Shown here: piece by piece, positions 647-63,610 of the stretch
Position numbering within the stretch: the first letter of the stretch is position 1
Layout of the letters: every line of letters begins with the position of its first letter
From: Candidatus Marinacidobacterales bacterium
GTDB lineage: Bacteria; Acidobacteriota; Vicinamibacteria; Marinacidobacterales; DATDRI01
Length of the DNA stretch: 64,000 nucleotides
Direction of reading: 5' to 3'
Assembly: GCA_965219415.1 (NCBI GenBank)
Contig: CBDCNP010000002.1
Coordinates: 4,224,001-4,288,000, forward strand
Made by a program: the position numbers and the translations under genes
Notes under the pieces: generated by a model
What the model was told of the DNA's origin: nothing
Databases searched by the model: none
The model's input: only the letters and a program-made list of their open reading frames with translations

Positions 647-812
647 GGTGCTTTCGCCATTAAGTGTTGGTGAGATGACGCTAAGACTTTACGGTGCATT
701 AAATTACAGCCAAAATAGCGCTCACGACCTTCGCTGCGCGCTAAATGGAGCGTAAGCGCCTCTCTTGCAAAGGGATGCGTACACATCACCAACAGCAAAC
801 AGCGCAAGCACC
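647..812 (-). mobile_element. IS1-family-derived MITE (type B, 166 bp)
   Basis: GGTGCTT...AAGCACC termini like the IS1 element at 48507-49706; near-identical copies at 16362, 28441, 45502; no TSD. Confidence 0.85.
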
Positions 813-1143
813 AATCCTACGCAAATACGTCGACTACTATCATTCGTGCCGGACTCATTTGTCGCTTGAGAAGGGACGCGCCCCGAGCCTCGCCGGGTAG
901 AGTCACCGGCGATGGGCAAAGTGAGAGCCATTCCAAAGGTCGGTGGTCTCCATCATCATTACACTCGACGCGCTGCTTGAGCCGACCCGCTCGGAACGGC
1001 TGCCGGACTTCGCACCAGCTTACACCTCTACCCCTGAGTAGAGCCGACGCCGGCTCTTAAAACGTCCTACATGAAGACGACCAAAGCATTCCGGTTGCAG
1101 GAAGTTCGCCAATCTCATACAGCTCGAGTTTATGGAAGGGACA
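813..1143 (+). pseudogene. 3' remnant and right end of an rve (integrase core) IS
   Basis: YVDYYHSCRTHLSL...PKVGGLHHHY-like text ending ...GAGTTTATGGAAGGGACA; same end inverted at 39168. Confidence 0.75.
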
Positions 1144-1320
1144 CCCCATCCATCATTATCATGGAGAGCGCAACCATCAAGGGCTCGGGAACGTGTTGCT
1201 CGAAGTGGAAGAATGCGTCGCAGTTCCCACGGAAACGTGCGATGTCGTAAGCGACTAGGCAGCTTGCTCAGTCATTACCACCGCGACGCGGCATAGGGAC
1301 CACCCGCGTGCCCCGTCCGG

Positions 1321-1848
1321 CTATTGGCCGACAGGGCTCATGAAGCCGCCGCTCACGGCGATCAGCACGAGCATAACACCCCACCCGGCCACGCACACCA
1401 CCACCGCACGCCATGTCGTCGTGAAATCAAGCGCCTGCCGCACCGCCAGCACCATCGCGACGAGCATCCAGATCGGCACCGCCAGCAGAAACAGGTCGCC
1501 GAGCAGCCCTGGCAAGATGCCAAGCACGCGCAGCACGCCTGGGGCCGCCGCGAACCCGGTGGTCCGGAGCAACTCCCCCACATCGGCGCGCGTCTGGGGC
1601 TGCGCGAAGACCTTGGTGCCGAGGACGTAGATCAGGACGGCCCAGATGAGCCAGCCGACCAGCGCCACCAGGGTGCCGACGATGAGGTGCGCACCCTGGC
1701 CCCCCGCCAGGCCGATACCGCCGGCCACGCTCGAGAGGACAACCACACCCATCGCCTGCGCGGTGGCTCTCGGATCCGCCTCGACCTCCTCGTAGATGTC
1801 TGGTTTCAGACGGGCAGCGCCAACGACGCGTTCAGCGAAGGTATGCAT
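1321..1848 (-). CDS. YIP1-family membrane protein
   Basis: YEEVEAD...AQA, five hydrophobic helices, LLRTTGFA..PG, AVRQALD motifs. Confidence 0.7.
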   Translation of the reverse strand: MHTFAERVVGAARLKPDIYEEVEADPRATAQAMGVVVLSSVAGGIGLAGGQGAHLIVGTLVALVGWLIWAVLIYVLGTKVFAQPQTRADVGELLRTTGFAAAPGVLRVLGILPGLLGDLFLLAVPIWMLVAMVLAVRQALDFTTTWRAVVVCVAGWGVMLVLIAVSGGFMSPVGQ

Positions 1849-1876
1849 ACTCCTGCAAGAGTATGCCATGCCTCGT

Positions 1877-1970
1877 TGTGATCCGCAAAAAAGAAGATCG
1901 GCCAGAAGCAGCCGACCGTAGCAAGTCTAAAGCGCGCAATCAACGCTGGATGGACTTTTTGCGGAGCACA
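1877..1970. mobile_element. 94-bp TGT...ACA MITE (type E)
   Basis: TGTGATCCGCAAAAA...TTTTTGCGGAGCACA inverted ends; copies at 14152-14245 and 30223-30316. Confidence 0.85.
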
Positions 1971-2060
1971 ACCGGCACTGGTGACCTGACTCCCATTGCC
2001 GAAGTGAAGCAAGGTCAATCCAGAGTGGAGGGAAGCCGTGAACTCCAGGACTAGCTATGA

Positions 2061-2116
2061 TTCCGAAACGCACTGGCGCGTGGGTCTTGAGTGCGTTTGT
2101 ATTTTTGGACACGACG
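2061..2116 (-). repeat. Solo transposon end type C (CGTCGTGTCCAAAAATACAAACG)
   Basis: Recurs at 11461/12361, 16162, 29247, 31168, 47591, 56419. Confidence 0.8.
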
Positions 2117-2142
2117 CCAACGAAGATCGTCCGGTTATTTCC

Positions 2143-2566
2143 TCATGGGAGCTGCGACTTCAGATAGTTTGCGAACGATGAGCAAGATACAAGGAAGTAC
2201 CTGGCATCTGCAGCGGTGATATTCGGTTCGTCAAGCATGGCATGTCTAATGCCTTGTTTGTCGCTCGTATAGCCGTACAACTTTAGAAAGCCCTCCTTGA
2301 GAGCCCTATGCAGTTGGCCCTTCTTCTCGATGGTCCTTAGTGCGTTGCCGAGTGTTGCCTTGTCGCTCCCTGAGATCGCGCGAGCGATGCTCTCGACGGC
2401 GGAGATTGACTCCTTGATGGAATTTCGATAGTCCGGGTTCTCGCGATCCGAATAGAGCTTCAGTGCACGGTCAATGTGAGTCGAGACCCCAACAAATCTA
2501 GTGTCTTTTGCTGCCTCTTCGACCGTATTGATTTCTTCTTGGCTCAACGACATCGGTGACATACCC
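2143..2566 (-). pseudogene. C-terminal fragment of AbiJ-related/HEPN-like defence protein
   Basis: LYSDRENPDYRNSIKESISAVE...LYGYTSD..GIRHA; 5' part removed at the end at 2567. Confidence 0.65.
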
Positions 2567-2668
2567 CGTCCTGTGCCAAAACTCGGCCCTTTTGAAAGAC
2601 CATGGCTGTAATTTAATGCGCCGTAAAGTCTTAGCGTCATTTTACCAACACTTAATGGCGGAAGCACC
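2567..2668 (+). mobile_element. 102-bp hybrid mini-element: rve type-A end fused to IS1-MITE end
   Basis: CGTCCTGTGCCAAAACTC...CTTAATGGCGGAAGCACC; second copy at 26175-26276. Confidence 0.85.
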
Positions 2669-3515
2669 CCTTGATGAGTAACAACCCAGGGCGGATCGGC
2701 TTCTGTCCCGCAGTGAAGCCGACGAGACAGATCCGTCCGAGCGGTTGGATCACCGACATGAGCGCCGCCTCGAAGAGCTCTCCCTGCACCATGTCGATCA
2801 CGACGTCGACGCCCTCCGAGTGGCCGAGTTCGGTGGCCGCTTGCTTCACCTCCGTCTTGAACGTGCGGTAACTGTCGCCGTCTCGACCGTAGCAGAGCAC
2901 TCGGTCGGCGCCAGCGGCGGTCGCAAACTCTTTCTTGTCCGGGACGCTGACGCCAGCGATCACTGATGCACCCATCGCCTTCGCCAGCTCCACCGCCGCC
3001 ATCCCCACCCCCCCGGACGCTCCATCGACCAACACCAGATCTCCTGCCGTGACCTCACCGAGAATCTTCAAGGAGTAGTAGGCTGGAAAGAAGTTTCGCC
3101 CCAGATTCGCACACGCAGACAGGGGGACCCCGGTCGGCGCCGGCCAGACCGACGACGCCGGCGCAGCGGCGACCTCGGCCAGACCGCCCACGCTCATTTG
3201 CGCGAAGACCTCGTCGCCCACCGCCAACCCGTCGACACCATCGCCTAGCTCCAGGACCATGCCCGACACGTCCATCCCTGGCACATACGGAAGCCGTGGC
3301 CGCTGCTGGTAAAGGCCCTGCGCCTGCAGGGCATCCGGATACTGCACACCGGCATACCGAGTTTGAACCAACACCTGCCCCGGTTCGCAGGCCGGTGGCG
3401 GAATCTCGTCCAACGAGAGGGCCTCTCGGAGCGAAGCCGGAGTCGCCAGGGGTCGCCCCTGGTCGTCGAGACCGACGTAGCGGTGACAGCGGACGGCTTT
3501 CATCAAGCTACTCAT
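2669..3515 (-). pseudogene. NADPH:quinone oxidoreductase (MDR family), 3'-truncated
   Basis: [22 protein letters not shown]; cut at the IS1-type end at 2668. Confidence 0.85.
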
Positions 3516-3566
3516 GGCTCAAAGACGAACAGCTTTCCTCGGCTTTGGGTCATTGCCCCCTAGCGC

Positions 3567-3667: not shown

Positions 3668-4683
<1,016 letters not shown>

Positions 4684-6872: not shown

Positions 6873-6919
6873 CTACAACCGGTCGGTACACAATCTGGCC
6901 TCAAGCCCATCGAGAACCC

Positions 6920-7096
6920 CGTCCTGTGCCAAAACTCAGCCCTTTTGAAATAGCCCATAAATCAGCAACTTAGAGTCTGGTTTGCGGTCGTGCCCAGGGC
7001 CGAGCACGAACAAACGACGAAATCATGCAGGCATAGTCCCGGCAGATCGGAGACCGATCAGGTTCGGGGCGCGCGGATGAATAAATAGAAGGCACA
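6920..7096 (+). mobile_element. 177-bp MITE (A + R ends), followed by a 21-bp inverted A-end stub (7097-7117)
   Basis: CGTCCTGTGCCAAAACTC...AATAGAAGGCACA; copies at 15466 and 56594. Confidence 0.85.
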
Positions 7097-7190
7097 GCCG
7101 AGTTTTGGCACAGGACGGGGTAACGGAGTCGTCGAAGGTTGCTGCTGCCTGAACTTTTCTACACACCTATTGACAAGAGCTCGGCCAAGT

Positions 7191-8024: not shown

Positions 8025-9424
8025 GGTGATGTCTTAAGATTCCTGTCAAAGAAAAACGATGTATGGTTCCCCAAGCTCAAACCCGTCCCCGTCATGGGGA
8101 CAGAAAAGGAGAACCATACATCATGGGAAAGGTACTACCGAGTCAGCGATTGCTCAAGCAGTTCGAGGAACAACTGGTATTTGGGGAGATGAATCTCTCG
8201 GAGATCGTCCGGTCGGGAGCTCAGATGATGCTTCAATATGCGTTGGAGCGCGAGGTGACGGAGGCGTTGGGTCGAAACTACTATGAGAACGCTCCGGCAA
8301 CGACGAAGGAGAAGGGACGACGCAACGGGTATGAGTCGCATCGGGTCCTCACGGGCGAGGGAGCGGTGACGGTGCAAGTGCCGCGGGTACGAGAAACAGA
8401 GAAGGTGTTTCAGTCAAAGATTCTCGACGCCTACGTGAGCCGGACCGAGAAACTCGATGAACTGATCGCGCGGATGTACGTCCACGGGATGTCGACGCGT
8501 GACATTGAGGCGACGTTCGCGGACGTGCTGAGCGGCACGGGTGTCTCGAAGTCGGTGGTGAGCCGGGTCACACGGTGTCTGTCGGAGGATTTCGAGGCGT
8601 TTCGAAAACGGGATCTCTCGAACGAGAAGCTGTTGTATCTCGAGCTCGACGGCACGTACCTGCGCTACCACCAAGGAGCGGAGAGGAAAGAGCCCATCCT
8701 CGTTGCGACCGGCTATCGCGCTGATGGGACGCGAGTTCTTCTTCATATCGGTGTCGGCAACCGAGAATCCTACGAGAACTGGAAGGGGTTCTTGCAGGAG
8801 ATAGTGGCCCGAGGAATGAGGGAGCCGTTGCTCATCGTGACGGACGGGAATCCTGGAGTGCTCAAAGCGATCGCAGAGGTCTTCCCTCGAAGCCTCAAGC
8901 AACGTTGCCAGAAGCACCGCCTCGAGAACATCCTGGGCAAGGCTCCGAAGGAAGTGCGCGACGAACTCAAGGCGGCCATCCTTGAGTCGTTCCATGCGAA
9001 CAGCTACGAGCAAGGGCTGAAGAAGGGTCGGGAGGTGATCGCTCGGTACCGTCAACGATTCCCGAGCGCGATGAAGTGCATGGAAGAGACCCTCGAAGCA
9101 TGTCTTCAGGCGCTACGCCTTCCTGCGGCGCATCACAAAAGGCTTCGCACGTCGAATCTACTTGAGCGCACGTTCGGAGAGCACAAACGTCGCACAAAGG
9201 TCATTCCTCACTTCTTCACCGAGGAGGCCGCGATGAAACTCTCGTTCGCTGTGCTCTTGGCCGCCGCAAACAAATGGCGCGGCGTGAGGATGGATGTCTT
9301 CGCCGCTAGGAAAGTCGAGGAGCTTCGCAACGAGCTTCTCCCGCAAGGCACGTCGGAGGAATCAGCAGCTTAACCGAGCGCGGGGAACCGTACGGAGATT
9401 TGACAGGAAAATTAAGACTTGACC
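8025..9424 (+). mobile_element. IS256-family element, 1400 bp, 8-bp TSD CCTTCCTG
   Basis: Imperfect IRs GGTGATGTCTTAAGATTCCTGTCAAA / TTTGACAGGAAAATTAAGACTTGACC; TSD at 8017-8024 and 9425-9432. Confidence 0.95.
8063..9373 (+). CDS. IS256 transposase (start may be 8122)
   Basis: RRNGY, GMSTRD, LELDG, VTDG..G, RTSNLLER. Confidence 0.95.
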   Translation: MVPQAQTRPRHGDRKGEPYIMGKVLPSQRLLKQFEEQLVFGEMNLSEIVRSGAQMMLQYALEREVTEALGRNYYENAPATTKEKGRRNGYESHRVLTGEGAVTVQVPRVRETEKVFQSKILDAYVSRTEKLDELIARMYVHGMSTRDIEATFADVLSGTGVSKSVVSRVTRCLSEDFEAFRKRDLSNEKLLYLELDGTYLRYHQGAERKEPILVATGYRADGTRVLLHIGVGNRESYENWKGFLQEIVARGMREPLLIVTDGNPGVLKAIAEVFPRSLKQRCQKHRLENILGKAPKEVRDELKAAILESFHANSYEQGLKKGREVIARYRQRFPSAMKCMEETLEACLQALRLPAAHHKRLRTSNLLERTFGEHKRRTKVIPHFFTEEAAMKLSFAVLLAAANKWRGVRMDVFAARKVEELRNELLPQGTSEESAA

Positions 9425-9696: not shown

Positions 9697-10981
9697 TGTG
9701 CATCGTCAAAACTGCTCCGCCCACGAAATCAAGACTTACGCTCCGCTTGAATTCCGGGCCGAAGACGGCGAAACTCCGCCGCTATGCTCAACGTTGTTGT
9801 CTTCCTCGTCTCACTTGGCGTCCGTGCCATTCGGGCGATGTGTCGGCGCCGCGCCGACCTGGTGTTGGAGAACGTCGCTTTGCGGCAGCAAGTGACGGCG
9901 CTGAAGAAAGAGCGCCCACGCCCACCGCTCGACGACACGGAACGGGCTTTCTGGGTTGCTCTTCGAGGTTCGTGGCCCGTGTGGGCGAGCCGCCTGCTCA
10001 TCGTCCACGCGGACACCGTGGCCCGTTGGCATCGCGACCGATTCCGACGGTACTGGGCAAATATCTCGCAGCGCCGCCATCCCGGTCGGCCTCGGATTGA
10101 TGCCGAGATTCGTCGCCTCGTCCGCACGATGGCGCAAGACGGCTGGGGGGCGCCACGCATCCATGCTGAGCTCACCAAGCTCGGTTTCATCATCTCCGAG
10201 ATCACGGTGTCGCGATACCTGCCGCGGCGTCCCGCGGAGCCCGACCAGCTGAAACGATGGATGGCTTTCTTGCGCAACCATAAAGACGATATCGCCGCCA
10301 TGGATCTGTTCACCGTGCCCACCGCGTCGCTCCGGCTGCTGTACGGCTTCTTCGTCATCGAGCACGGTCGCCGGCACATCGTTCACTTCAACGCCACGTT
10401 CCACCCGACGTCTGCTTGGGTTATTCAGCAACTACGCGAGGCGTTTCCCTACGACACCGCTCCGAGATATCTCATCTTCGATCGCGACTTCATCTTTAGC
10501 GCTGCGGTCATCGAGTTCATCAAGGCAACGGGCACAAAACCCGTTCGCACTTCGTTTCGCAGCCCATGGCAAAACGGAACCGCGGAGCGGTGGGTCGGCA
10601 GCTGCCGTCGCGAGCTCCTTGAGCACGTCGTGGTTCTCGGTGCATGTCATCTCATCCGGCTCGTGCGAGCTTACATCAGCTACTATCATGAGGACCGTTG
10701 CCACTTGGGGCTGAACAAGGACACACCGAGCTTGAGAACGGTCACGCACCGACCGTCTCCTACGGCGAAAGTAGTCGCACTGCCGCGAGTCGGTGGACTG
10801 CACCATCGATACGAGTGGCGAGAGGCAGCCTGAGTCAGCTTGGTCGCTCGCGTTACTCGGCTGGTCGCCGAGAAGTTCGTTCTCAGCACCTTCCCTCGCG
10901 CGCTGACCACGCTCTCCAGCATGTGCTCGAGGGCGGTCCGGGCCCTAGAGTCCAGTCCCGGATTAATAATGATGATGGACA
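9697..10981 (+). mobile_element. rve/IS481-like IS, complete, TGT...ACA ends, no TSD
   Basis: TGTGCATCGTCAAAACT left, TAATAATGATGATGGACA right; inverted copy at 19926-21211. Confidence 0.9.
9784..10833 (+). CDS. Integrase-core (rve) DDE transposase, 349 aa
   Basis: [36 protein letters not shown]. Confidence 0.9.
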   Translation: MLNVVVFLVSLGVRAIRAMCRRRADLVLENVALRQQVTALKKERPRPPLDDTERAFWVALRGSWPVWASRLLIVHADTVARWHRDRFRRYWANISQRRHPGRPRIDAEIRRLVRTMAQDGWGAPRIHAELTKLGFIISEITVSRYLPRRPAEPDQLKRWMAFLRNHKDDIAAMDLFTVPTASLRLLYGFFVIEHGRRHIVHFNATFHPTSAWVIQQLREAFPYDTAPRYLIFDRDFIFSAAVIEFIKATGTKPVRTSFRSPWQNGTAERWVGSCRRELLEHVVVLGACHLIRLVRAYISYYHEDRCHLGLNKDTPSLRTVTHRPSPTAKVVALPRVGGLHHRYEWREAA

Positions 10982-11462: not shown

Positions 11463-12360
11463 GTAGGGTCGAGGGCTGGCGCGGTGCTCCGTAGGCGCGG
11501 CCTATCTGTTTCTCCCCGTTTCCTGTGGGAGTGCCTCACTAGCCGCACCGTAAGTCCGTTTCCAGCCCCCGCCACATCGCACGCAGCGTACGGCTTTCCC
11601 GCACTACGCGCTCCTGCACACTTCCCGCGAAGGGTTATGTGACCTATCGAGCCGGGGTGTCTTTCGGCGAATCTACGAGATATCGAACTCGGTAATCGAA
11701 CAGTCCGACAGTCGCGTACATCCATCGCCTACTCCATCGCTTCCAGCCGAAACCTTGGCGCAAGAAGCGCCAAGACTTCTCGGCCTTCGCCTTGACGTAT
11801 ATCCTTCGTCTCAGCTCCTGCAGAGTGATGGGTGATTTTGTCATCTCACCCCTGCCTCGCTTGTTGACGAAGGAGTTGTGTGCAGCAGGGCCCCTTTGCT
11901 CCACGGGCGTTGCCCCGTTTCAACGCTACTACGGACCCAGCCGCCACCGTCTCGTCTTCGACCGTTTTCCCGGGGCCTCCGGTTATGCGGTCTACCTTGC
12001 TCCGTCGATTTCTCGACGGGACGAGGACGGCTTCTCCAGTTGCTTGGCATGTCCTTGTCACCGTGCTGTCCCTACCACCCCGCCACAGGGATGTGCCTCA
12101 TCAGATAGTCTGACAACACATCCTGTTGCCTTCGTCCGACACGAGAAAACTCGGCCTCTGGGGTCTATTTTTTTGTCGGGGCCACCTATGGGTTCACTTG
12201 TGTTACGGCCCGGTGACTCGCTCACCATCCTCAAGATGGCTTTGTCAGTCAGCTTCATCCGTCTCGTTTCCTCCACGAACGTGACTCAAGCTACGGGGCG
12301 CTAACTTTTTCCCCGGTGGGACTCTCTCCCACTGAACATGCCAGCCTTCGCTGGACGCAC
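11463..12360 (-). ncRNA. Group II intron (898 nt) with internally deleted RT ORF
   Basis: 5' GTGCG at 12360, DV/DVI-like GAGCGCGTAGTGCGGGAAAGCCGTACGCTGCGTGCG...CCCTAC 3' end; ORF has only the N-terminus (LQELRRRIYVKAKAEKSWRF) joined to the C-terminus (GFGWKRWS). Confidence 0.88.
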
Positions 12361-45479: not shown

Positions 45480-45501
45480 CGTGGACTCCTGTCTCCCAAA
45501 G

Positions 45502-51415: not shown

Positions 51416-52305
51416 CCCAGCGGCTCGAGACAGGCCGCGAGTTCACGCGCCTCGTCGACTGATAGGTTTTGCAGCGGCGCGCGCACGCCACCGCCGTCGA
51501 AGCCACGCTGACGGGAGGCAGCCTTGACTTTGGCAACATAGTTGCCTCTCCAGATGCAGAGCAGCGACGGGATCATGCGCGACCACAGTTCCATTGCGCC
51601 CGCGATATCATTGCTGGCGACCAGTTCAAACAGGCGCACGCTCTCGCGCGGCATGTAGTTTGCGGCACCCCAGATACATCCTTGCGCCCCGGCGATGAAG
51701 CTGAAAACGGTATTGGGATCGCAACCGTTCAACACCATGTATCCGGTGGCGAGGTATTCCTGGTGGGTGGTCAGGTCGCCGGCGCTGTCCTTGATGTAGT
51801 TGAAATGCTCAAGCTGGTTCAGGCGTTTGAACAGGTCGACCGAAATACCGATGCCGGTGGTTTGCGGGATGTTATAGCCGATGATGTCGGTTTCGACCGC
51901 GGCATCGATGGCCTGGTAAAACGCAAACAACCCGTCATCGTCTTCGGGGCCTTCGAGGTAGGGCGGCAAGATCATCAACGCATCGGCGCCAAGTCCCTGA
52001 GCATGTTTGCTGCGCTCGATCACTTCGTCGAGCACCAGCGCCGAGGTCTGGCAAATCAGTTTACAGCGTCCGTCGATACGCCCGGCGCCGAGCTCGTAAA
52101 GCTGATTGCATTCCTTACGGGTCAGGTAGGGATGCTGCCCGGTGCCGGCACCGAGCACCAGCCCATGGACGCCAGCGTCGATATAGAGGTCGATTAATTC
52201 TTCCCAGCGTGCATAGTCGATGCTGCCGTCGGCATGCATCGGGGTTTGCATCGCCAGGTTGATTCCGGTCAGTTCGCTCAATGATTTCTCCGTCTGTCCT
52301 GGCAC
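51412..52305 (-). CDS. Dihydrodipicolinate synthase family lyase
   Basis: GAGTGQ, LPPY, GYNIP, IKDSAGD. Confidence 0.88.
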   Translation of the reverse strand: MPGQTEKSLSELTGINLAMQTPMHADGSIDYARWEELIDLYIDAGVHGLVLGAGTGQHPYLTRKECNQLYELGAGRIDGRCKLICQTSALVLDEVIERSKHAQGLGADALMILPPYLEGPEDDDGLFAFYQAIDAAVETDIIGYNIPQTTGIGISVDLFKRLNQLEHFNYIKDSAGDLTTHQEYLATGYMVLNGCDPNTVFSFIAGAQGCIWGAANYMPRESVRLFELVASNDIAGAMELWSRMIPSLLCIWRGNYVAKVKAASRQRGFDGGGVRAPLQNLSVDEARELAACLEPLG

Positions 52306-52356
52306 CTCTCGTGTGCCTCCAGTACCAGCTGAGGTACATCGCGTTGTAGTTGGCTT

Positions 52357-53373
52357 TCAGTTGTCATTTTTGATCTGCCGAGTGACCATCTTGGCGATCT
52401 GAATGTCCTGGATTGCGACTCCGGTCAGATCCGCCACCGTGATTTGGTCTTCGCTGGTTCGACCGATTTCGGGGTTCTTGATCACGTTGCCCAATTCAAG
52501 AATAGAAGCCTCTTCGATCTTGTTATCTTTCACCGCATGGAAGCACTCGCCGTGATCGACACATTGTGAAACGCTGTCCGCCACCACTCGATCGGCCTTT
52601 GCCAGGAGCTCGGCCTCCAGCTCCTCTTTGCCGTCTGCATCCGATCCCATGGCGGTGATGTGCGTTCCCTTTTGGACCTGATCCGATCCCATGGCGGTGA
52701 TGTGCGTTCCCTTTTGGACCTGATCGGCCCGAATCAAAGGCTCCTTAGCCGATGTTGCGGTTACGATGAGGTTGCATTGCGAAAGCAGGTCATCGATTTG
52801 CGTTGCCGCTCTTAGGTCCAGCCCCCAAGCCTGGATAGCTTCTCTCGCCTGTAGATCCTCAATCATTCCTTTCACTTTGTTCGCGTCTCTGCCCCATATG
52901 AAACAGCTTTGACAGTCAACAACATCCTTCAACAGTTCGAGTTGCATCCTCGCCTGCACGCCGGTGCCGACGATCCCTATGTGTTGGACGTTGTCGGGAG
53001 CCAGATGCTTCGCGGCTACCGCCCCGGCCGCTGCGGTGCGCATATCGGTGAGCCAGCACTCGTCGTGGAGAATAAGTTTGAGGTGCCCCGTCTTCTGACT
53101 GAATACCAGAATCACTCCGTCGGCAACCGGTAGATCCAGTTCGGCATTGTTGTAAAAGCCGGATGCCATCTTGAGAACATATAACTCATCGCCGGTTACG
53201 AAGCCGTATTTAATATGAACGTCACCTGGCGGTTCATCGAAATGTAAGAAACCTACAGGCGGAACGACCACCTTATCTTCGGAATAGAGAACGAAACCGG
53301 CTTCGATCTCCCTGATGAGCTGCGGGATATCGATCAGACGCTTGATCTCATCGAGTTTGAGTACTTTAGGCAT
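52357..53373 (-). CDS. Ornithine cyclodeaminase/mu-crystallin family protein with a 14-aa tandem duplication
   Basis: LTDMRTAAAG, GTGVQA, DLTGVAIQD. Confidence 0.9.
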   Translation of the reverse strand: MPKVLKLDEIKRLIDIPQLIREIEAGFVLYSEDKVVVPPVGFLHFDEPPGDVHIKYGFVTGDELYVLKMASGFYNNAELDLPVADGVILVFSQKTGHLKLILHDECWLTDMRTAAAGAVAAKHLAPDNVQHIGIVGTGVQARMQLELLKDVVDCQSCFIWGRDANKVKGMIEDLQAREAIQAWGLDLRAATQIDDLLSQCNLIVTATSAKEPLIRADQVQKGTHITAMGSDQVQKGTHITAMGSDADGKEELEAELLAKADRVVADSVSQCVDHGECFHAVKDNKIEEASILELGNVIKNPEIGRTSEDQITVADLTGVAIQDIQIAKMVTRQIKNDN

Positions 53374-53390
53374 TGTCGAAACCCTCCTTT

Positions 53391-53801
53391 TTAGCCTCGG
53401 TTGTCGCCGCTGAGACCGCTGTAGACTGAAATGATCACGCCTGCGATCAGCATCTTTCCGCCCCAGTCGCCGAACACGTCGGTCGCAACCGCCACCAGCG
53501 GTGCTTCGGTGTTGTTTGCAAGCTCGGGCCCGTTGAACGCATAAAATAGAAGGATCGTACTCGCACCGATGCTTGCAGCGGAGGGCCACTCGGGAATGGC
53601 GAGGTTCTCGACGTTTGTCACAAATAGCCCGGCGCCCAGCAGTAACAGTAGCGGCACCAGCTTGGCCAGCGTGTTGAAAATGTATAAACGCATTCCCGCT
53701 TTGACGCCCCGGACGTTGACAGCAGCCAGGAACGTCAACAACGCTATGACACCGGTTCCAATCACGCGTACCAGTCCTTCGTCTTGCACGCTATCCGACA
53801 C
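53391..53801 (-). pseudogene. APC amino-acid permease collapsed by in-frame deletions
   Basis: GLVRVIG | AVNVRGVK...AKLVPL...YAFNG | APLVAVA; only 136 aa. Confidence 0.7.
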
Positions 53802-53872
53802 GGCTATGAATTACCCCTTGTTGCTCTTAATTGTCGGCAGACTTTGTATCGCGTCAACGTTCTACAGGCGTT

Positions 53873-54985
53873 CTACAGGCGATCGCGCGCGGTGTGCAAA
53901 TAATAATCGACCACCTCGCCAGCGGTATCAATCACGTGGATGCCCGGGTAGCGGATCGTTGTGGGACAAATGTGACCCGGCACCGCCAGGAAATAGTCGC
54001 CCACACGAGGCAGTTCACCCGAGATCCGGAAGACTCCATGCTCTTCGTCCTGCAATATGAGTTGCGCCCCGTCCTGGCCAAGCAAGTAAGCCCTTTCCTC
54101 GACCGGAAGATCTCCACTGATTCCCTTGTATCCCAGGTCCGTGGTGATCGTCCCCGCGTCCGGATACCGGTCCACCACTTGGGTCAGGATCAGGGCAGCG
54201 CAGCGAAACGGAATGTCGGGCATCGCCGTACTAAAGCCCGCGTCCCAGTAGATAAATGTCCCCGGTGAACCGTACATGCCCTCGGTGCGCGCGTAGTAGG
54301 CAAACGAAAAGCTGCCGCCGGCGACCACGCACGGAACGGGCATCCCCGCCGACTCGATCTGCTGCTGAAACTCCCGAAGCGACTCGATGTTTCGCTGCGC
54401 TGCCGCCTCGCGTTGAACCGCGTCGCTAAAGTTATCGTGTCCGTCGTACAAGTGAAATCCGGATGGCTGTAAGAACTGGTGTGCGTCGATTTCCCGATAC
54501 AACTTTGCGGCATCCGGGCCGAATCCAATTCCCGTACGGTGCATGCCGGCATCCAGATCCAGCATCGCGCGCAGCGACTGTTTTCGGCGTGCGGCGACGG
54601 TGGCCAGCACGTCGAGGTGAAACGGGGTACTGACGATGGTGGCGATCCACGCGTCCGGGTAGGACGAGGTCAGGTCGCAGAGACGCTCGATTTTGCGCTC
54701 CTGGACCTGAGGATAGGAGAGAATCGCCTTGTGTGCTCCGGCCTGTAGCACCGTTTCCAGTTCCTTCAACGTGGCGCACTTGAACCCGTCAATGCCAGCT
54801 TCGACCTGTTTGCGCGCGACCGCCTCCGATTTATGCGTCTTGACGTGGGCGATCAGATTCTGGCCGCCACCCACCATTTCGCAGACACTTCGAATATTGT
54901 GGTCCATCATGTCCTGAAAAAGCAGCATGGTCGGCGTTTCCAACGCGTCCGGGTCGGCGACGCAATAATCCTGGTAGGTGATCAT
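53873..54985 (-). CDS. D-threonine aldolase/D-serine dehydratase family PLP enzyme
   Basis: HVKTHK, GMHRTG, YDGH, EEHG, PGHICPT. Confidence 0.9.
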   Translation of the reverse strand: MITYQDYCVADPDALETPTMLLFQDMMDHNIRSVCEMVGGGQNLIAHVKTHKSEAVARKQVEAGIDGFKCATLKELETVLQAGAHKAILSYPQVQERKIERLCDLTSSYPDAWIATIVSTPFHLDVLATVAARRKQSLRAMLDLDAGMHRTGIGFGPDAAKLYREIDAHQFLQPSGFHLYDGHDNFSDAVQREAAAQRNIESLREFQQQIESAGMPVPCVVAGGSFSFAYYARTEGMYGSPGTFIYWDAGFSTAMPDIPFRCAALILTQVVDRYPDAGTITTDLGYKGISGDLPVEERAYLLGQDGAQLILQDEEHGVFRISGELPRVGDYFLAVPGHICPTTIRYPGIHVIDTAGEVVDYYLHTARDRL

Positions 54986-55256
54986 CGATACATTCCTTAA
55001 GAGTCGATGTACTGGATTTGACTCATCTGTTGAGCGGCTTCGAAAATCGCGTCCGCCACAGCCAAGTCCTGGATTGCGGGGGATAGGGATTTTGATCGCG
55101 GGTGCTCCTCGGACGCCGGTGCGGTTTAACCCCCGTGGCTGCGTCTCCCCTCTTTTGGAAGCTGATATCCATCGGTTCTTTCTCCTCTAGAATGCTGAGT
55201 CGATTCTAGTATACCCATGCGTACGAGTAAGAGATATTGTCAAGAGTTGTGGATCA

Positions 55257-56791: not shown

Positions 56792-57991
56792 TTACAGCTC
56801 TCGAAGCGCCGTTGCCACCGGCATGCGGGCGGCGCGGACAGCGGGAAAGAGCCCGCCCACCAACCCGATGGCCGAGGCGTAGACGATCCCCTGCACCAGC
56901 AGCTCCGGCGTGACATCAAAGGCAAAGGCTACTTGGGAGAAAGTTTGCCAATTGAGCGTTGCGGCGCGGAAACCGTCGAAGACAATGTAAGCCAGACCGC
57001 CACCGATCGCCCCACCCACCAGAGCCAGAACGAGAGACTCGACAAGAACCGAGATCACCACCGGAGCTCCACGGAATCCAAGCGCGCGCAGCGTCGCGAT
57101 CTCTCGTGTCCGTGAAGAAACAGCGGTGTACATCGTATTCAAGGCACTGAAGATGGCACCGATCCCCATCAACACCACCACCAGCGTGCCCAGACCGGTG
57201 ATGAGGTTGGTGACCATCGTCGACTGCTCTGCATAAAAGTCGGTCTGGCGCACCACCTTGACGTTGAGGCGCGGATCTGTGGTGAGCCGATCCTTGAAAT
57301 CCTGGAACGCGTTGGGCGAATCGAGCTTCGCATAGACCGCTTGAAAGCTGTTCCCGCGCCTGTAGGCCGGCTGCAGTACAGCCGCATCAGTCCAGATCTC
57401 GGACTCGGCGATGCCGCCGTTCGCGGCAAAGCGGCCGACCACCGACCATTCGACCTTTCCGACCGGGATCTTGTCTCCCACTTCCAGACCGGCGAACTCT
57501 AGACTTGCTCCGGAACCCACGATAACTTCGTTCTTCCCCCATTCGAACTTGCGCCCTTCGATGATTTCTAGAGCGTCGCGCACCTCGTAGGCTGCTCGCT
57601 CGACGCCTCGGAGAGGAACATTAGCATCGGAGCCGGTAGACCGCATGGGCATATTAATAATGACGAAGAGCTCCGCCGAAGCCTTCGGGCCTTCCGCACC
57701 GCGAGCCACACCCTCGGTGTCGACGATGATGCGGGTGGTCGGGCCACCGAGATCGCTCATCATCTCGCCGTCGGCGCCGCTCCGGAGAATGATCGCGGTG
57801 TCGGGAGATCCGGACACGGTCATGGCATGTTGGAACCCCTTCGCGATCGACAAAACGGCGACCAAGACCGCCACCACGCCGGCGATTCCGAAGACCGCCG
57901 CTGCGGTGGACCCTTTGCGGGAGAGGACGGTCATCAGGTTGAACGTCGAAAGCGAGAAGACCTGTCGGAGCCAATTGATGGGGCCGGTCAT
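56792..57991 (-). CDS. ABC transporter permease (FtsX/MacB type)
   Basis: RTREIATLRALGF, FPAVRAAR. Confidence 0.9.
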   Translation of the reverse strand: MTGPINWLRQVFSLSTFNLMTVLSRKGSTAAAVFGIAGVVAVLVAVLSIAKGFQHAMTVSGSPDTAIILRSGADGEMMSDLGGPTTRIIVDTEGVARGAEGPKASAELFVIINMPMRSTGSDANVPLRGVERAAYEVRDALEIIEGRKFEWGKNEVIVGSGASLEFAGLEVGDKIPVGKVEWSVVGRFAANGGIAESEIWTDAAVLQPAYRRGNSFQAVYAKLDSPNAFQDFKDRLTTDPRLNVKVVRQTDFYAEQSTMVTNLITGLGTLVVVLMGIGAIFSALNTMYTAVSSRTREIATLRALGFRGAPVVISVLVESLVLALVGGAIGGGLAYIVFDGFRAATLNWQTFSQVAFAFDVTPELLVQGIVYASAIGLVGGLFPAVRAARMPVATALREL

Positions 57992-57994
57992 GGA

Positions 57995-59145
57995 CTACAA
58001 CCTCCTGAGCGCGTCGGCAATGCGGAGTCGTCCTGCCTCGACGGCAGGCAGGATGCCCGCAGCGAAACCGAGTGCGAAGACCAGCACGACCCCCAGCACA
58101 ATGTCCCGAGGTGGAAAGAAAAAGACGGGGAGAGCCCCGTTGGTGGGATCGCCCAACGAGATCAAGAACCACCCGATGCCGAGCCCCAAGAGACCCCCCA
58201 TGGCGGCGAGTGACAGGGCCTCCGCCAGAACCAGACCCAATACCTGCCGGTCGGTAAAACCGACTGCCTTGAGGACCGCTAGCTCTCCGACCCGCTCACG
58301 CACCGAGTAAGCCATCGTATTCCCCGCCACCAATAAGATCGTGAAGAATACCGCGGCAAGTATCGCCATGATGATGGTCCCGATGTCTCCAACCTGGTTT
58401 GCGAACGCTTGGACGAATGCGCCCTCGGTCTCGGCCTTGGTCTCGAAGGGAGAATTCGCGAACTGATCGTCGATCGCCTTGGCCACGTCGACCGCTTTAT
58501 CCGGATCCTCGACGCGGACGTAGTACCAGCCGATCTGCCCTCTTCCGAAATCTCGGGCCTCGTCGAAAAAATCATGTCGAAAGAAGAAATTCGAAGTATC
58601 GGTCCCCTTCTCGGCGCCTTCGTAGATGCCCACCAGGTCGAACTCCCAGGTCTGCTTACCCCCGCCATGGGTCCAAATGGTGGCTTGAATCGGGATGCGA
58701 TCCCCCACCTTCCACCCGAAGCGATCGGCGGTGACCCGTCCGGCGATGGCACCGGTTCTCGTCTCGAGCCAGCGCGCCTTCTCCTCTTCGGTGATGAGGT
58801 ACTCCGGATACATTTCCAGAAACTCTTCCGGTTTCACCGGCATCTGCGCGAAGAAGTTCTTGGGTTCCTGGTAGATTCCGCCGAACCAGGTGGCGTGCGT
58901 GGCATCGGCGACGCTCGGTATCTGCTCGATCCGCGCCTCGTAGCTTTCGGGCAATTGTTGAATGATGGAGACCTTGTGCCGAACGATCAACCGGTCGGCG
59001 CCGGCGACATCCACGCCCGAGCTCAGCGCCACTCGAATGGCGGCAAGGTATCCGAACAGGAGAAAGGCGACCGCAATCGACAAGAGCGTGAGAAGTGTGC
59101 GGACTTTCTTGCGGTTGAGGTTGCTCCAGACCAGGTTGACGAACC

Positions 59146-59149
<4 letters not shown>
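57995..59149 (-). CDS. ABC transporter permease (FtsX/MacB type)
   Basis: RTLLT, ERVGELAVLKAVGF. Confidence 0.9.
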
Positions 59150-59840
<691 letters not shown>

Positions 59841-59844
<4 letters not shown>

Positions 59845-60699
59845 CGACTGCGCTCCTCTACCCGTTCTCCATCTGCCAGTTCGTCTGGTCCTTCTACCAC
59901 CACGCTCTCTCCGGGCGAGATCCCGGAAAGAACCAGCGCTTCCCCGTCTTCAATCGTTCCCAGCCTCACCGCGCGTCGCTCGACCTGTCCATCACAAACG
60001 ACGAAGACCACGTCTCGACCTTCGTCGCGGCTAACGGCTCCCTTCGGAATCCTCACCGCGCTGCCACCGGCTTGCTCCGCTTCGTCGCCCTGGAATGCCA
60101 CCTTGACTCCCATGTCCGGAAGAACGCGCGGATCGAGCTCGTCAAACCCAATGCGCACTCGCACGGTCGCGCGATCGCGATCGGCGGTCGGGACGATGGC
60201 GATGACGTGACTCGGAATGCGCCAGGTTGGGTAAGCGTCGAGCGTAGCTTCGACCGTTTGCCCCGCTTGAACACGATTGATGTAGCTCTCGTTGACGTCG
60301 ACCTCGATCTCGAGTGAACTCATGTCGACAACGGTCCCGATCCCGGTCCGGGTGAACCCTCCGCCGGCCGAGACCGGAGAGATCATCTCGCCCGGCTGTG
60401 CATTTTTGGTGGTGACGACGCCGTCGAAGGGCGCGCGGATGATCGTATCTTCCAGCTGTTGATTCCACACCGCAATGCGTCTCTCCGCGACCGTTTCTTC
60501 TTCGCCCTGTCTCGCCATGCGCGCCTCGATGACGTCGACGCTGGCCTGCACCCGATCGAGCTCCGCTTGACTGACCACCGAATCCGCGACGAGCGCCTTG
60601 GTCCGGTCGAGATTCAGATTCGCTTCGGCGAGCCGGACTTTCGTTTCCTCGAGTGCGGTTTTGACCGCTACCAGCTCCGCGCGAGCCAGCCGAAAGCTG
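59841..60699 (-). pseudogene. Efflux periplasmic adaptor (MFP), 5'-truncated
   Basis: IRAPFDGVV, EVDVNES, LPDMG; cut at the IR at 60700. Confidence 0.85.
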
Positions 60700-61440
60700 G
60701 GTAGTGGTCTAGTTTGGACGTTCCTCATCTCTCAGTCGCAACTCGCCTGGATCGCCGCACTAGACCCTGTCAGCTGCCAGGAGAACACGGCCGAATTTTG
60801 CCCGTACCAGGGAAGGGCCACCGCGAGAGTCTCTCCTCCCGACAACGCTGATATAGCCTGCGAGCTGTTCTTGAATATAAGGTCATTGTCGCCCCACGAC
60901 TGGATCACTCTCCAGCTGGCGGTGCTCCCTCCGTCCACACGGACAGAGACGTTGTAGGTTGTATACCCGTCGGCAATGTCACCACCAGTGAGATTGGGCG
61001 CCTCAGAGAAGCGCATCCACGCCCGATTGCAGTCGACGAACAGTCTGCTGGTTATGTCGCTGTACGGAAACGTCATAGCCCTAGATGGGCCAACGGTGTC
61101 ACTCGCAGCGCCGACACCCGTGGCATCGCCGAACTCATCGACGAAGTTAGTCGTGTCCCACGCCGGCCTAACTGGTTCTGGCGCCGGGAGGGCCGGTTCG
61201 GCTGCCGCTTCCTCAGATTCCGGTTCCGATGGATCGTCCTGCGAAAGCGACGCGCCAGCCCCGGCCAACATAAGCGACAGAATCCAGATCCCAACCGACC
61301 AGATGCGGTTCGGCAGCCTGGCCACCTGCGGGTTGACAAGTCCGACTACGGCCCACACGAAGACGGCCAGCGATACGAGTAACAGAAAATCACCCATGCG
61401 TTCCTCTTCCTCTCCGACGATACCAAACTAGACCACTACC
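60700..61440. mobile_element. Non-autonomous cassette with perfect 18-bp IRs and one passenger gene
   Basis: GGTAGTGGTCTAGTTTGG (60700-60717) / CCAAACTAGACCACTACC (61423-61440). Confidence 0.85.
60732..61397 (-). CDS. Hypothetical membrane-anchored protein (passenger)
   Basis: Two TM helices, Pro/Glu linker, VDEFGD motif; GAGG RBS. Confidence 0.7.
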   Translation of the reverse strand: MGDFLLLVSLAVFVWAVVGLVNPQVARLPNRIWSVGIWILSLMLAGAGASLSQDDPSEPESEEAAAEPALPAPEPVRPAWDTTNFVDEFGDATGVGAASDTVGPSRAMTFPYSDITSRLFVDCNRAWMRFSEAPNLTGGDIADGYTTYNVSVRVDGGSTASWRVIQSWGDNDLIFKNSSQAISALSGGETLAVALPWYGQNSAVFSWQLTGSSAAIQASCD

Positions 61441-61617
61441 TAATGTTCCGGCGTCAGAGCATAACTGTGCGTGACCTTGAACGTCGGGTCACCCGCTGAA
61501 TACAACACTCCTTCCGGGGAAATAGGCAGGAAACCTGCACTGTCACGTGCACTTTTGCCTCCTTTGCTGGTGTCCGGACACTTCTGAAACTGAGGGATCA
61601 TCTTTGAGAGAGAACTC

Positions 61618-62387
61618 CTAGATCGGTTCACCCCCTCTAAACCGGCGGGCTGCTTGACGCAACCTGATAACCATCTCTACACGTTCCCATTTGGGTTCAC
61701 ATCCAAGTTTCCGTAGGAAGGCAGCGGCTACTTCTGTGTTAGCGGCGCGTTCCTTACCACTTGGATCAATCAACGAATCCATAAATTGAATAACTTCTGA
61801 AAGCTGGCTTGCGAAAGATATAAACGCCCTTGCCCCTTCCGGATAACTAATATCGTTCACAGCATCTGTATTCATAAGGCAACCGTTTATGGCGTTCAAC
61901 GTGACATGGACTGCATCTAACGCTTCAACTGCGTTTTGCCGGCTGGCCTTAGTCAATGTGGTAGCACTGGGTGTGGTCGCTCGCTTCAGATCCGTGTGGG
62001 CGATGCGTTGATTTCTCCACTGGCGAGCGAATTCTGCGGCTTCGGTAGCTTTCTCTGACAGCCTCTCCACTTCGGAACGAAGTTCCGGAAAATCCTTACA
62101 TAATGCAGGTAGCCTTCGAACCGTGAGGTTGTCTTTTCCAGTGTTGGGATGATCTGTCATCCTGCAAATGCTCATTAGCAAGTCATCCCATAAGATGGAT
62201 TGGATCCAACCAATAAACTCACCGTTGCTGATCGCGTCTAGTAACGCAACTTTTTTGGCATCGCCGAACAACTCGCCGAACTCAAGAAGGCGCTCCTTAC
62301 ACTTTGCCCATTCATTCCACAAGGCGTAATGGATAGCCCCGAACTCTTCGCCGAGCTTGTCTTGATATTCTCGCTTCACTTCTCTCC
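61618..62387 (-). CDS. HEPN (AbiU2-like) protein, native start replaced by MITE
   Basis: ICRMTD, NLTV, RQWRNQRIAH (Rx4H). Confidence 0.7.
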
Positions 62388-62696
62388 CGTCCTGTGCCAA
62401 AACTCGGCCCTTTTGAAATAGATCGCAAATCAGCAGTTTAGACGCCCTTGGAATCCGCGCAGAATCCAGGGTATTTCGCGCCGTAGGGCTGGCTTCCGAC
62501 CCCTGGGCTGCGGGTGGCGGGCGACAGGCCCACCGGGGGTGCACACGGCTGGCTCCAATCGGCTGCGGGGCGAGCTGCAGGCAACGAACTGTGCATCCGG
62601 AAGGAATACGTATCCGACCGCGATGCCGGATTCAAGCAGCCCTTGGAAAGGTGCAAACTGCTGACCCGATGGGCGTTCGAGTATTTTGGCCAGACG
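62388..62696 (+). mobile_element. 309-bp MITE (A + D ends)
   Basis: CGTCCTGTGCCAAAAC...GAGTATTTTGGCCAGACG; copy at 63302-63610. Confidence 0.9.
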
Positions 62697-62736
62697 GCCA
62701 TTCGTAACGAAGTCGTCGGCATCTTTGGAACACTCC

Positions 62737-63141
62737 TCACTCAACGTCCTCACCCGTCAGGGCGTACTCGAACCGGTCGCACTCTTTCGCTAACGTCTCG
62801 ACATACAACTGCAGCTCTTCGCGATCCAGCGTCGCGGCGGGAACCTCGATTACGCCAATGAGCGCGTCCTGCTCGTCGAAGGAGAACGTGACCAGTTCTT
62901 TGGCCGCGTTCCGCCGCCACGCGCGGTACGCGAGGTCCCGCCAAGCCCTATCGGATGTCGTGACCTGCTTCGGTGGAAGCACTGAGGATCGAAACACGTA
63001 CCGGTCTTGCGTCCGCGCACATCGCACGACTTGCGTCCGGGAACGTTTCTTCAACTGGACTCGAATGTTGTGCCCCTCCCGACGCCACGAAACCAACGCA
63101 GACGTAATAAGCGCGTCGATTCGGGGGATCAGTCGTTCCAT
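62737..63141 (-). CDS. Hypothetical protein (possibly YbjN-like); preceded by a gene tail at 63129-63301
   Basis: LDREELQLYVETLAKECDRFEY; decayed homologue near 38760-38850. Confidence 0.55.
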   Translation of the reverse strand: MERLIPRIDALITSALVSWRREGHNIRVQLKKRSRTQVVRCARTQDRYVFRSSVLPPKQVTTSDRAWRDLAYRAWRRNAAKELVTFSFDEQDALIGVIEVPAATLDREELQLYVETLAKECDRFEYALTGEDVE

Positions 63142-63301
63142 GGCGCCCCGCCCTCAGTGTTCTCGACGAGCGTTCGTCTGATCGCAGCAGCCGCATGGAC
63201 GGTCCGTGCCACCAGCAGCTCCAACTCCTCCCATTGGGTGAGTGCAGGACTGAACGGCAGGTCGCCCTCCACCGTCACCCGGTCGAGACGACTGTCATCC
63301 C

Positions 63302-63610
63302 CGTCCTGTGCCAAAACTCGGCCCTTTTGAAATCGACCGCAAATCAGCAGCTTAGACGCCCTTGGAATCCGCGCAGAATCCAGGGTATTTCGCGCCGCAG
63401 GACTGGCTTCCGACCCCTGGGCTTCGGGGGGCGGGCGACAGGCCCACCGGGGGTGCGCACGGCTGGCTCAAATCGGCTGCGGGGCGAGCTGCAGGCAACG
63501 AACTGCGCACCCGGAAGAAATACGTATCCGACCGCGATGCCAGATTCAAGCAGCCCTCGGAAAGGTGCAAACTGCTGACCCGCTGGGCGTTCGAGTATTT
63601 TGACCAGACG
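63302..63610 (+). mobile_element. 309-bp MITE (A + D ends)
   Basis: Copy of 62388-62696. Confidence 0.9.

Follow-up and report, generated by a model that had tools for sequence, protein, structure and literature searches.

Members of the IS1 family produce adjacent deletions, inversions and cointegrates by replicative transposition, and a stagger of 8-9 bp is expected when they attack a target. Insertion sequence (IS) copies that lack a target-site duplication (TSD) are usually seen as rare leftovers of rearrangement. According to Ngan et al. 2024 (PMC11708052), such copies arise by adjacent deletion and by recombination, and de novo movements of IS5 and IS481 occur at large deletions and duplications without a TSD. 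PMC4471558 and PMC7986276 invoke replicative intramolecular transposition for the deletions and inversions in IS26/IS6 mosaics. For the IS481 family, PMC10045372 gives TSDs of 2-15 bp, mostly 6 bp, and duplications of 15-29 bp in IS481/IS1202 relatives. Here we analyze a 64-kb stretch of a Candidatus Marinacidobacterales genome (G000:C3:4224001-4288000; hereafter the window, with positions counted from its first letter), whose IS481-like and IS1-like elements and their miniature inverted-repeat transposable element (MITE) derivatives form nine families with about 2,000 tips in the genome and no TSD-flanked copy.

We interpret the window, with moderate confidence, as a slice of a megabase-scale accessory compartment saturated with several IS481-like ISs, an IS1-like IS and their miniature derivatives, in which the joints are non-canonical and made by transposases. 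The joints lie exactly at transposon tips, and it is therefore the transposases that make them. The usual product would not be a simple insertion; instead, the two tips of a copy would end beside DNA from two places. Replicative or intramolecular transposition may be the route, creating adjacent deletions, inversions and duplications with an element at each new joint. Over time, this process would truncate genes and elements, leave solo tips and hybrid MITEs, multiply truncated copies of host segments and reshuffle their order. IS26/IS6 mosaics on resistance plasmids are alike in that many element copies bound unrelated truncated segments with no TSD in cis, but here other transposase families are involved, across megabases of chromosome, and the tips belong mostly to MITEs and solo ends. 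The events in PMC11708052 also place IS481- and IS5-type elements at duplication or deletion joints, with no TSD and with flanks from two places. They are single laboratory events, whereas here such joints appear to be the sole outcome that can be seen, for nine families, throughout entire compartments and in numerous related genomes.

Used as probes, 15 tip sequences located 86 distinct tips across the window, spread from 647 to 63610 at a density of about one per 0.75 kb. A hand tally of the tip table gives 65 TGT/CGTC-type tips, 16 IS1-like tips (GGTGCTT...) and five IS256 tips. An earlier note on this DNA had counted about 70 ends between exactly these limits; the 65 TGT/CGTC-type tips are of the kind it described. 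The seven tip sequences it quoted all exist, and the differing base composition it saw among segments is borne out by a GC content per kb of between 0.489 and 0.657. With up to 2 mismatches allowed, the window contains its most frequent tip, CGTCCTGTGCCAAAAC, 27 times, where shuffled sequences give 0.05 and none of 100 shuffles reaches 27. The note's single shared YGT-N7-A-rich tip did not survive, as the ends belong to separate families. The generic consensus YGT-N7-AAAAY, as written for this analysis, was rejected with one match against 5.8 expected; the shared motif is thus a family resemblance among about eight end types, which belong to IS481-like (rve) elements, derived MITEs and the IS1-like family. 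About half of the window is repeated elsewhere in the genome, in up to about 390 copies, and sharp pile-ups of alignment starts and ends in the window-versus-genome comparison defined the families, including the MITE families F2, F3, F4, F5, F6, F7 and F9.

Two of the full-length elements are IS481-like. ISA (31800..33232, minus strand) is 1,433 bp long, encodes a 356-aa rve_3 transposase, is bounded by perfect inverted repeats of considerable length (CCCGTCCTGTGCCAAAACTCGGCCC) and has 11 full copies and 507 ends genome-wide. IS349 (9697..10981, plus strand) is 1,285 bp long with ends TGTGCATCGTC...GATGATGGACA and a 349-aa rve_3 transposase, and has no TSD; a second copy lies at 19926..21211 (minus strand). 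The two transposases are 30% identical (E = 7e-35), and a D-D-35-E pattern is visible by eye in their pairwise alignment. The IS481-type architecture is present: a single rve-type DDE open reading frame (ORF) and TGT...ACA inverted termini. Elements of the IS481 and IS3 families share with them a single rve_3 ORF of about 350 aa, the D-D-35-E pattern, the termini, a length of 1.2-1.4 kb and MITE derivatives. They differ in that the window's transposases fall far below both curated NCBIfam cut-offs, the 349-aa protein scoring 77.8 bits and the 356-aa protein 98.5 bits where the IS481 model requires 224, and 83.5 and 81.3 where the IS3 model requires 160, and in the absence of TSDs here. The IS1-like element (48507..49706, minus strand) is 1,200 bp long, encodes a 404-aa ORF, has 31 full copies and no TSD in cis. 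Its protein matches IS1 best among NCBIfam models (84.5 bits, just under the cut-off of 100), and its N-terminus resembles the IS1/IS1595 zinc-binding domain (19.8-20.3 against a cut-off of 28). It is like IS1 in its best model match, in an inverted repeat that begins GGTG, in an inferred 8-9-bp stagger and in tips that abut truncated targets, and unlike it in the sub-threshold score, the 404-aa ORF and the missing TSD in cis. The IS256 transposase of the window, in contrast, scores 295.4 bits against a family cut-off of 150. An IS110-family element, IS3 and fragments of two further ISs are also present.

We tested 427 unique full-length copies of the nine families for TSDs (IS349 48, ISA 11, IS1-like 30, F5 145, F2 69, F3 32, F6 26, F7 56, F9 10), using word lengths of k = 2-9, boundary shifts of +/-4 and a permutation background. 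None had a TSD beyond chance. The duplications expected of IS481 were missing from all 59 full IS copies (IS349 0/48, ISA 0/11) and from all 193 copies of the F2, F3, F6, F7 and F9 MITEs, and an IS1-type TSD in cis was found in 0/30 IS copies and 0/145 F5 MITE copies. The longest word common to the 60-nt flanks had the same distribution as in permuted pairs, and the 15-29-bp duplications of IS481/IS1202 relatives are therefore excluded as well. The earlier note's observation of no matching flanks at the rve- or IS1-type elements it had checked consequently extends to the whole genome. A search for empty sites returned spanning matches for 2/48, 1/11, 3/30, 13/145, 10/69, 0/32, 2/27, 5/57 and 1/10 copies of the nine families in the order given above, which on inspection were mostly self-overlaps or overlaps of small length.

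Other elements in the same DNA behave normally. In this genome, the IS256 element has a TSD in 8/8 copies (five of 8 bp and three of 9 bp) and an empty-site paralogue for 6/8 copies when the joined flanks are searched within the genome. A 1,258-bp IS3-like element has a 3-nt direct repeat in at least 17/30 copies, its full copies make 3-4-bp TSDs, and two of its copies are simple insertions into ISA ends with both halves kept. A 1,314-bp IS3 element has a direct repeat in 3/10 copies by script, and in more by eye at 4 bp. With these controls normal, the absence of TSDs is a property of the families, and not of the islands or of the assembly. Two window fragments, 44774-45502 and 24881-25286, were tried as additional controls and rejected as internal pieces of longer elements; for the first, its 1,258-bp parent was used. 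The parent of the second is a 1,089-bp IS with perfect inverted repeats (TGCCTTGGTGCACAACTC) and 15 full copies, all on C3 (e.g. the C3:2305402 region), among which no obvious TSD was seen.

The same controls bear on the idea that the joints are chimeric products of assembly or binning, which we regard as extremely improbable. The element-carrying relatives are metagenome-assembled genomes (MAGs), the contamination estimate is 8.45% and short public contigs could not bridge the repeats, all of which would suit an artefact. However, any read is longer than a MITE of 94-181 nt, so that the two flanks of such a MITE cannot have been joined wrongly; of the 92 informative tip-flank junctions, 23 recur unchanged in G002, a separate assembly of a congener; and IS256 and IS3-like elements have textbook TSDs on the same contigs. 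IS3-like elements that are 99-100% identical are shared by all three contigs and thereby tie C1, C2 and C3 together. Artefact is unlikely for these reasons.

Flank tracing within the genome recovered no simple insertion by a TSD-less family. After removal of five trivial segmental duplicates, both flanks could be traced to G000 paralogues for 28 informative copies, with 0 simple insertions: 12 had inversion-type, seven deletion-type and four duplication-type geometry, and in five the flanks traced to different contigs. Tracing against 1.19 Mb of G002, with one trivial case removed, gave 11 informative copies and again 0 simple insertions. By comparison, IS256 flanks indicated simple insertions in 3/3 cases, with an 8-9-nt overlap. 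Nested copies told the same story, as the interrupted repeat was never contiguous around F5 (7 copies with both flanks in repeats, 53 with one), IS349 (2 and 17) or F2 (2 and 24), and was contiguous around the 1/1 nested IS256 insertion. A strong asymmetry in the surviving side of hot-spot targets is unexplained, as is the recurrent insertion of several elements about 21 nt inside the ISA end.

For the IS1-like family, the attack on the target can be reconstructed from different copies. Among 446 opposite-side end pairs in the same repeat family, 16 overlap by 8-9 nt, while each other offset from -15 to 20 has 0-4 pairs, and the partners always lie on different, distant copies. Both ends thus evidently attack one target with the stagger expected of IS1, yet the products never lie on one copy. 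This pattern fits Shapiro-type replicative transposition within the molecule, and also insertion followed by recombination between copies. We infer the pathway itself, whether replicative or intramolecular, and an analogous route for the IS481-like families. The earlier note had proposed that the two ends of each unit act on different DNA; unrelated flanks and the absence of simple insertions from both tracings agree with that part, while the half-site transfer it offered as a means runs against the IS1-like family's normal stagger on one target. For the TGT-type families, the two sides of an IS349 target, divided at position 355|356, lie at copies 0.9 Mb from each other, with a 0-nt overlap. 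The target of the F6 MITE at 14152..14245 is intact in G002, and in G000 its sides adjoin two F6 tips 1.15 Mb apart, also with a 0-nt overlap.

Could these copies have begun as simple, TSD-flanked insertions, only for homologous recombination between the hundreds of copies, together with decay, to scramble them afterwards? The copies are numerous and the tips dense, recombination between copies would swap flanks while preserving tip-flank joints, the 8-9-bp partners in trans of the IS1-like family are compatible with it, and the older families (within-family identity 93-96% for F5 and 94-99.8% for IS1-like) have had time. Recombination alone, however, would retain both copies of each TSD, and an 8-mer partner in trans was found for only 37/548 IS1-like flanks, a weak excess over the 8-23 of offset controls. 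In the other families, TSD k-mer partners in trans were none above control, so that the genome-wide search for reciprocal TSD partners that the note had called for turned up a little for one family and nothing for the rest. Recombination alone is unlikely because such partners are scarce. Furthermore, none of 427 copies has escaped, while IS256 (8/8) and the 1,258-bp IS3-like element (17/30) are intact in the same islands, and F2 copies of 100% identity are already TSD-less. We consider later scrambling unlikely as the main explanation.

Comparison with G002 shows how thoroughly the compartment has been rearranged. It holds the same cargo pieces at 97-99% identity, each 0.2-3 kb long, in a completely different order, and some pieces have the same boundaries in both genomes with different neighbours. 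We compared G000 ends whose low-copy flank reaches the junction within three G002 contigs (1.19 Mb). Among 92 informative ends, the flank runs on uninterrupted in G002 at 63, meets the same junction at 23 and meets another tip at six. Of the 62 uninterrupted ends other than IS256, 41 have a far side that lies intact with its flank at another place in G000, 15 have one that is absent or partial and six have one preceded by other sequence. The cargo beside a tip is thus often an additional, truncated copy of sequence whose intact version lies elsewhere (41/62). Most traced flanks have 2-3 copies in G000, and consequently this count cannot separate a duplication made by the event from a deletion in one existing copy.

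Individual cases follow suit, and the note's assertion that no gene cut at one tip resumes after the other is upheld. The alcohol-dehydrogenase gene cut at 2668|2669 is uninterrupted in G002 and does not resume beyond the window's element. The M20 peptidase piece (18502..19925, minus strand, together with the first 21 nt of an ISA-type end) runs on in G002 into an intact 312-nt F9 MITE; in the window, the second IS349 copy (19926-21211) interrupts that MITE after 21 nt, and the remainder is absent beyond the other tip. At L017, a locus in a related public MAG, an IS349-like copy has a cut SduA_C gene on one side and a cut TonB-receptor gene on the other. Window positions 21212-21852, beyond the second IS349 copy, were not found in G001-G003. 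The note had also proposed a genome-wide search for the missing halves of cut genes; the sequence expected beyond each of the 62 ends, sought across G000, was intact elsewhere in those 41 cases and adjoined a listed tip in only four.

These figures also feed the main rival account, in which two-site or break-associated joining is the normal mode: each tip would join a different duplex, or a break already present, as at a collapsed fork or between sister chromosomes. Every event would then make a duplication or a deletion with an element at the joint and no TSD, a transposase-driven engine of segmental shuffling. We think this possible but clearly the less probable account; in the same tentative spirit, the IS481-like DDE clade and its co-resident IS1-like family might normally join their two ends to two DNA sites and not to one staggered target. 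The 41 truncated extra copies and the rarity of far sides at tips (4/62) speak for it, as do young F2 copies (98-100% identical, with unique flanks) that already lack TSDs, the TSD-less IS349-like copies seen by eye in MAGs of other phyla (56-78% identical transposases) and the size of G000, which at 8.0 Mb is larger than its congeners, with a marker duplication of 8.45%. PMC11708052 also describes an IS481 copy that arose in the middle of a large duplication, with no TSD, and proposes insertion into breaks. On the other side, the flanks are mostly multi-copy (2-3) with a high base rate of intact paralogues, so that 41/62 carries no decisive weight; IS1-like ends attack one target with an ordinary 8-9-bp stagger; duplication-type geometry is not in excess (4/28); and no event has been directly observed.

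Replicative or intramolecular transposition, with its adjacent deletions and inversions, must in turn answer several points. Relatives of IS481 and IS3 are thought to move by copy-out-paste-in, which gives simple insertions, and for them a replicative route is a hypothesis. F2 copies are 98-100% identical and TSD-less, so that the TSD-less state arises at or soon after copying. The TGT-type families provide just two traced split targets, both with the 0-nt overlap described above, too few to fix a stagger. The far side adjoins a listed tip in only 4/62 traced cases and the partner search was negative for 239/330 IS1-like ends and 226/259 ISA ends; many deletions must therefore be assumed. The F4 hybrid MITEs, which carry the ends of two unrelated families in 21 full copies, are unexplained, and cargo boundaries without a tip occur at 3518|3519, 41951|41952 and 55234|55235. 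Even so weighed, the explanation that the earlier note had set aside as less exciting, intramolecular transposition, adjacent deletion and recombination between copies, is the best-supported class, at an unusual scale. The mechanism is probably a known class at an unusual extreme; what is unusual is its completeness (0/427) and its size (about 2,000 tips, in many genomes).

That size becomes evident across the genome, which comprises 8.05 Mb in three contigs (C1, C2 and C3) at 59% GC. Probing with the same 15 sequences found 2,014 tips, restricted to C2 and to islands on C3: 507 ISA-type, 234 C-type, 619 IS1-like, 157 IS349, 159 F6, 195 F7, 81 F9, 39 T-type and 23 IS256. Matches to the TSD-less families number 0.5 per 100 kb on C1 (10 in total), 89.7 on C2 and 66.2 on C3, where most of the first 1.8 Mb is empty and dense islands follow, especially from 4.1 to 5.7 Mb. 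With respect to these families, the genome is split into a 'clean' compartment (C1 and most of C3:1-1.8 Mb) and a 'littered' one. Confinement to islands fits a short-range or same-molecule spread.

The earlier note had favoured an integron-like cargo array, and had proposed a genome-wide scan of the end motif to see whether ends cluster in arrays; that scan revealed megabases of islands on C3 and C2, no discrete array and ends of several families, with no sign of a dedicated capture function. A dedicated integron-like system, which would use transposon ends as recombination sites and be selected to stock cargo such as defence genes, is in our judgement very unlikely. Cargo pieces with the same boundaries and differing neighbours in two genomes, defence-like genes among the cargo and an order reshuffled between congeners at 97-99% identity would all suit such a device, and repeated sites that part unrelated cargo without duplications are common to integron arrays and this DNA. 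Unlike integron arrays, the window has no integron-type tyrosine recombinase (the 12 genome-wide matches to PF00589 include none in the window and only two on C3, at 2.87 and 5.48 Mb), its sites are true termini of several unrelated transposase families, much of its cargo is truncated or consists of fragments of other elements, no single array exists and the ORF list reveals no evident shared promoter or orientation. The device is unsupported because the window lacks a tyrosine recombinase, the cargo is truncated and there is no discrete array.

The TSD-less pattern recurs in related genomes. The IS349 transposase occurs in 22 of 41 related genomes searched (by family, 6/7, 15/17 and 0/16), a tally that includes one unpublished genome on which no claim rests, and window-type tips are present in many genomes of the order. 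Copies of IS349 at 97-99% identity are found in several genera, again clustered, and at loci L002-L006 and L011-L016 the protein identity is 96-99% in different genera of the order; this identity across genera indicates that the element, or entire segments of islands, spread horizontally not long ago. The named public records with IS349 copies are MAGs labelled Candidatus Marinacidobacterales. More distant transposase homologues (56-78% identical) lie in MAGs of other phyla. Relatives of the element measure 1.2-1.5 kb and have TGT/ACA inverted repeats, and no TSD was seen by eye in the inspected IS349-like copies from other genomes, including those of other phyla. A plasmid collection held one weak 67% match for IS349, on a Bradyrhizobium plasmid, and no match for ISA. 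A comparison of ORF continuity across 40 IS349-like loci was discarded, as the control background was too high (median 58 codons) and the three top cases were not continuous genes.

Logan contigs (X15, X18, X1, X4) are short and end no more than 20-30 nt from each repeat. None of the listed pieces extends 31 nt to both sides of a tip-flank joint, and the junctions are neither supported nor contradicted by them; X15 and X18 cover unique cargo with 0 differences. Runs that carry a sponge metagenome label contain mainly the repeat families, and we draw no conclusion on habitat. We found no publication naming 'Marinacidobacterales', and searches of the literature on IS481, TSDs and intramolecular transposition and on ISs of sponge symbionts and Acidobacteria yielded no description of these elements.

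Within the window, elements and cargo alternate from the first tip to the last. A 166-nt F5 MITE (647..812) has IS1-like inverted repeats GGTGCTT...AAGCACC and 148 full copies genome-wide, none with a TSD. It is followed by the 3' fragment of another IS481-like element (813..1143, plus strand), which terminates at the tip TGTCCCTTCCATAAAC (reverse strand), and by a 94-nt F6 MITE (1877..1970) with ends TGTGATCCGC...GCGGAGCACA. The F4 hybrid MITE at 2565..2668 (plus strand) joins the first ~40 nt of an ISA end to the last ~66 nt of an IS1-like MITE. Its IS1-like tip at 2668 cuts the 3' end of the zinc alcohol-dehydrogenase gene (2669..3518, minus strand), and the truncated dehydrogenase ORF reads into the MITE. 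From the opposite side, ORF 2143-2667 (minus strand) appears by eye to begin (ATGTCACCG...) right beside the MITE's ISA-type tip. With ORFs abutting or entering the MITE on both sides, its tips supply gene ends at 2143-2668. An IS3-family fragment (3668..4683, plus strand) is cut on the left by a C-type tip at 3667 and contains an ALIL frameshift pseudoknot at 3696-3812. The stretch 6916..7117 (plus strand) holds an F3 MITE with an ISA-type left end and a C-type right end, TGTGCCTTCTATTT, followed by a 21-nt solo ISA tip. The IS256-family element that served as an internal control (8025..9424, plus strand) lies within an IS3 copy and has the 8-bp TSD CCTTCCTG.

An F7-type MITE with tips CGTCGTGTCC and CGTCCTGTGCC (12359..12431) precedes a BCCT transporter segment (12436..14151, minus strand), a cargo piece that has the same boundaries in G002 and other neighbours on both sides. 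Just left of both, at 12198-12334 (minus strand), lies a group II intron D1-D4 fragment (RF02003, 120 bits); this fragment and the ALIL pseudoknot are the only matches in an Rfam scan of the window at gathering thresholds. The F6 MITE at 14152..14245 adjoins the transporter segment, and the far side of its target is the one intact in G002. The stretch 15463..16121 (plus strand) holds an F3 MITE (15463-15643) and an F2 MITE (15973-16121). The next, 16362..18501, comprises an F5 MITE (16362-16527), an IS1-like fragment and the IS110-family element (17039-18501), whose 358-aa ORF spans 17369-18445. This element has 27 copies at 99.3-100% identity, which occupy one fixed position in the IS1-like inverted repeat, with the left flank ...GCGTAGCAACA in most copies; such a choice of site is typical of site-specific targeting of another element's end. 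A second IS256 copy (21853..23252, minus strand) has the 9-bp TSD CCTAGAATG and an empty-site paralogue at C3:3.45 Mb.

A dense run of MITEs and solo tips, with short cargo pieces between them, extends over 23401..31509. Its F2 MITEs lie at 23401-23547, 25355-25501, 26301-26448, 29024-29171 and 30370-30516, and it also includes an F4 (26175-26276), an F5 (28441-28606), an F7 (29171-29247) and an F6 (30223-30316) MITE. Cargo in this run includes a 589-aa FAD_binding_2 flavoprotein with a C-terminal multihaem cytochrome c region (26598-28367, minus strand), which has a 76%-identical paralogue at C1 1041657-1043486 and is an older duplicate among the cargo. Beyond ISA, two defence-like genes (34066..38487, minus strand) are bounded by ISA-type tips at 34009 and 39017 and are unique in the genome. 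One encodes Schlafen/AlbA_2 and HATPase_c_4 domains with PADLOC matches to pAgo-associated proteins; the other encodes an 892-aa ATPase whose best PADLOC match, in the C-terminal part only, is Ppl (1.3e-35).

Further right, a unit repeated in about 15 copies (40451..41951, plus strand) begins with an ISA-type tip, carries the 5' part of a serine-recombinase gene and has a tip-less right boundary. There a 1,198-aa frame (41151-44747, plus strand) joins a serine-recombinase N-terminus (Resolvase and Recombinase) to a unique N6-methyltransferase/PglX-like C-terminal part, and looks like a chimera formed at the tip-less junction 41951|41952. The internal fragment of the 1,258-bp IS3-like element (44774..45502) is cut by an F5 tip at 45502. 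Two long cargo stretches follow the IS1-like element. The first (50349..55234, minus strand), whose genes include those for an MFS transporter and an ornithine-cyclodeaminase-like protein, is 98.7-99.5% identical to C3:2360362-2367843, which it duplicates, and the second (56805..60700, minus strand) duplicates C3:3183757-3187640 at 92.6% identity. The last elements, over 62386..63611 (plus strand), are a pair of F9 MITEs (62386-62697 and 63300-63611) whose left tips are of the ISA type and whose right tips are of the CGTCTGGTCAAAAT type.

In this DNA, three further IS families are normal, which makes this clade a natural test bed for whether DDE transposases can routinely make TSD-less deletions, inversions and duplications, or insert at breaks. 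Transposon finders that depend on TSDs would miss these elements or misplace their boundaries. If two-site joining were true, each movement would duplicate, delete or invert DNA, placing the element at the joint without a TSD, and the families would be an engine that builds and reshuffles megabase accessory compartments from truncated host and foreign DNA in uncultured Acidobacteriota. More broadly, the finding bears on the origin of large, fluid accessory compartments in uncultured symbiont-like bacteria.

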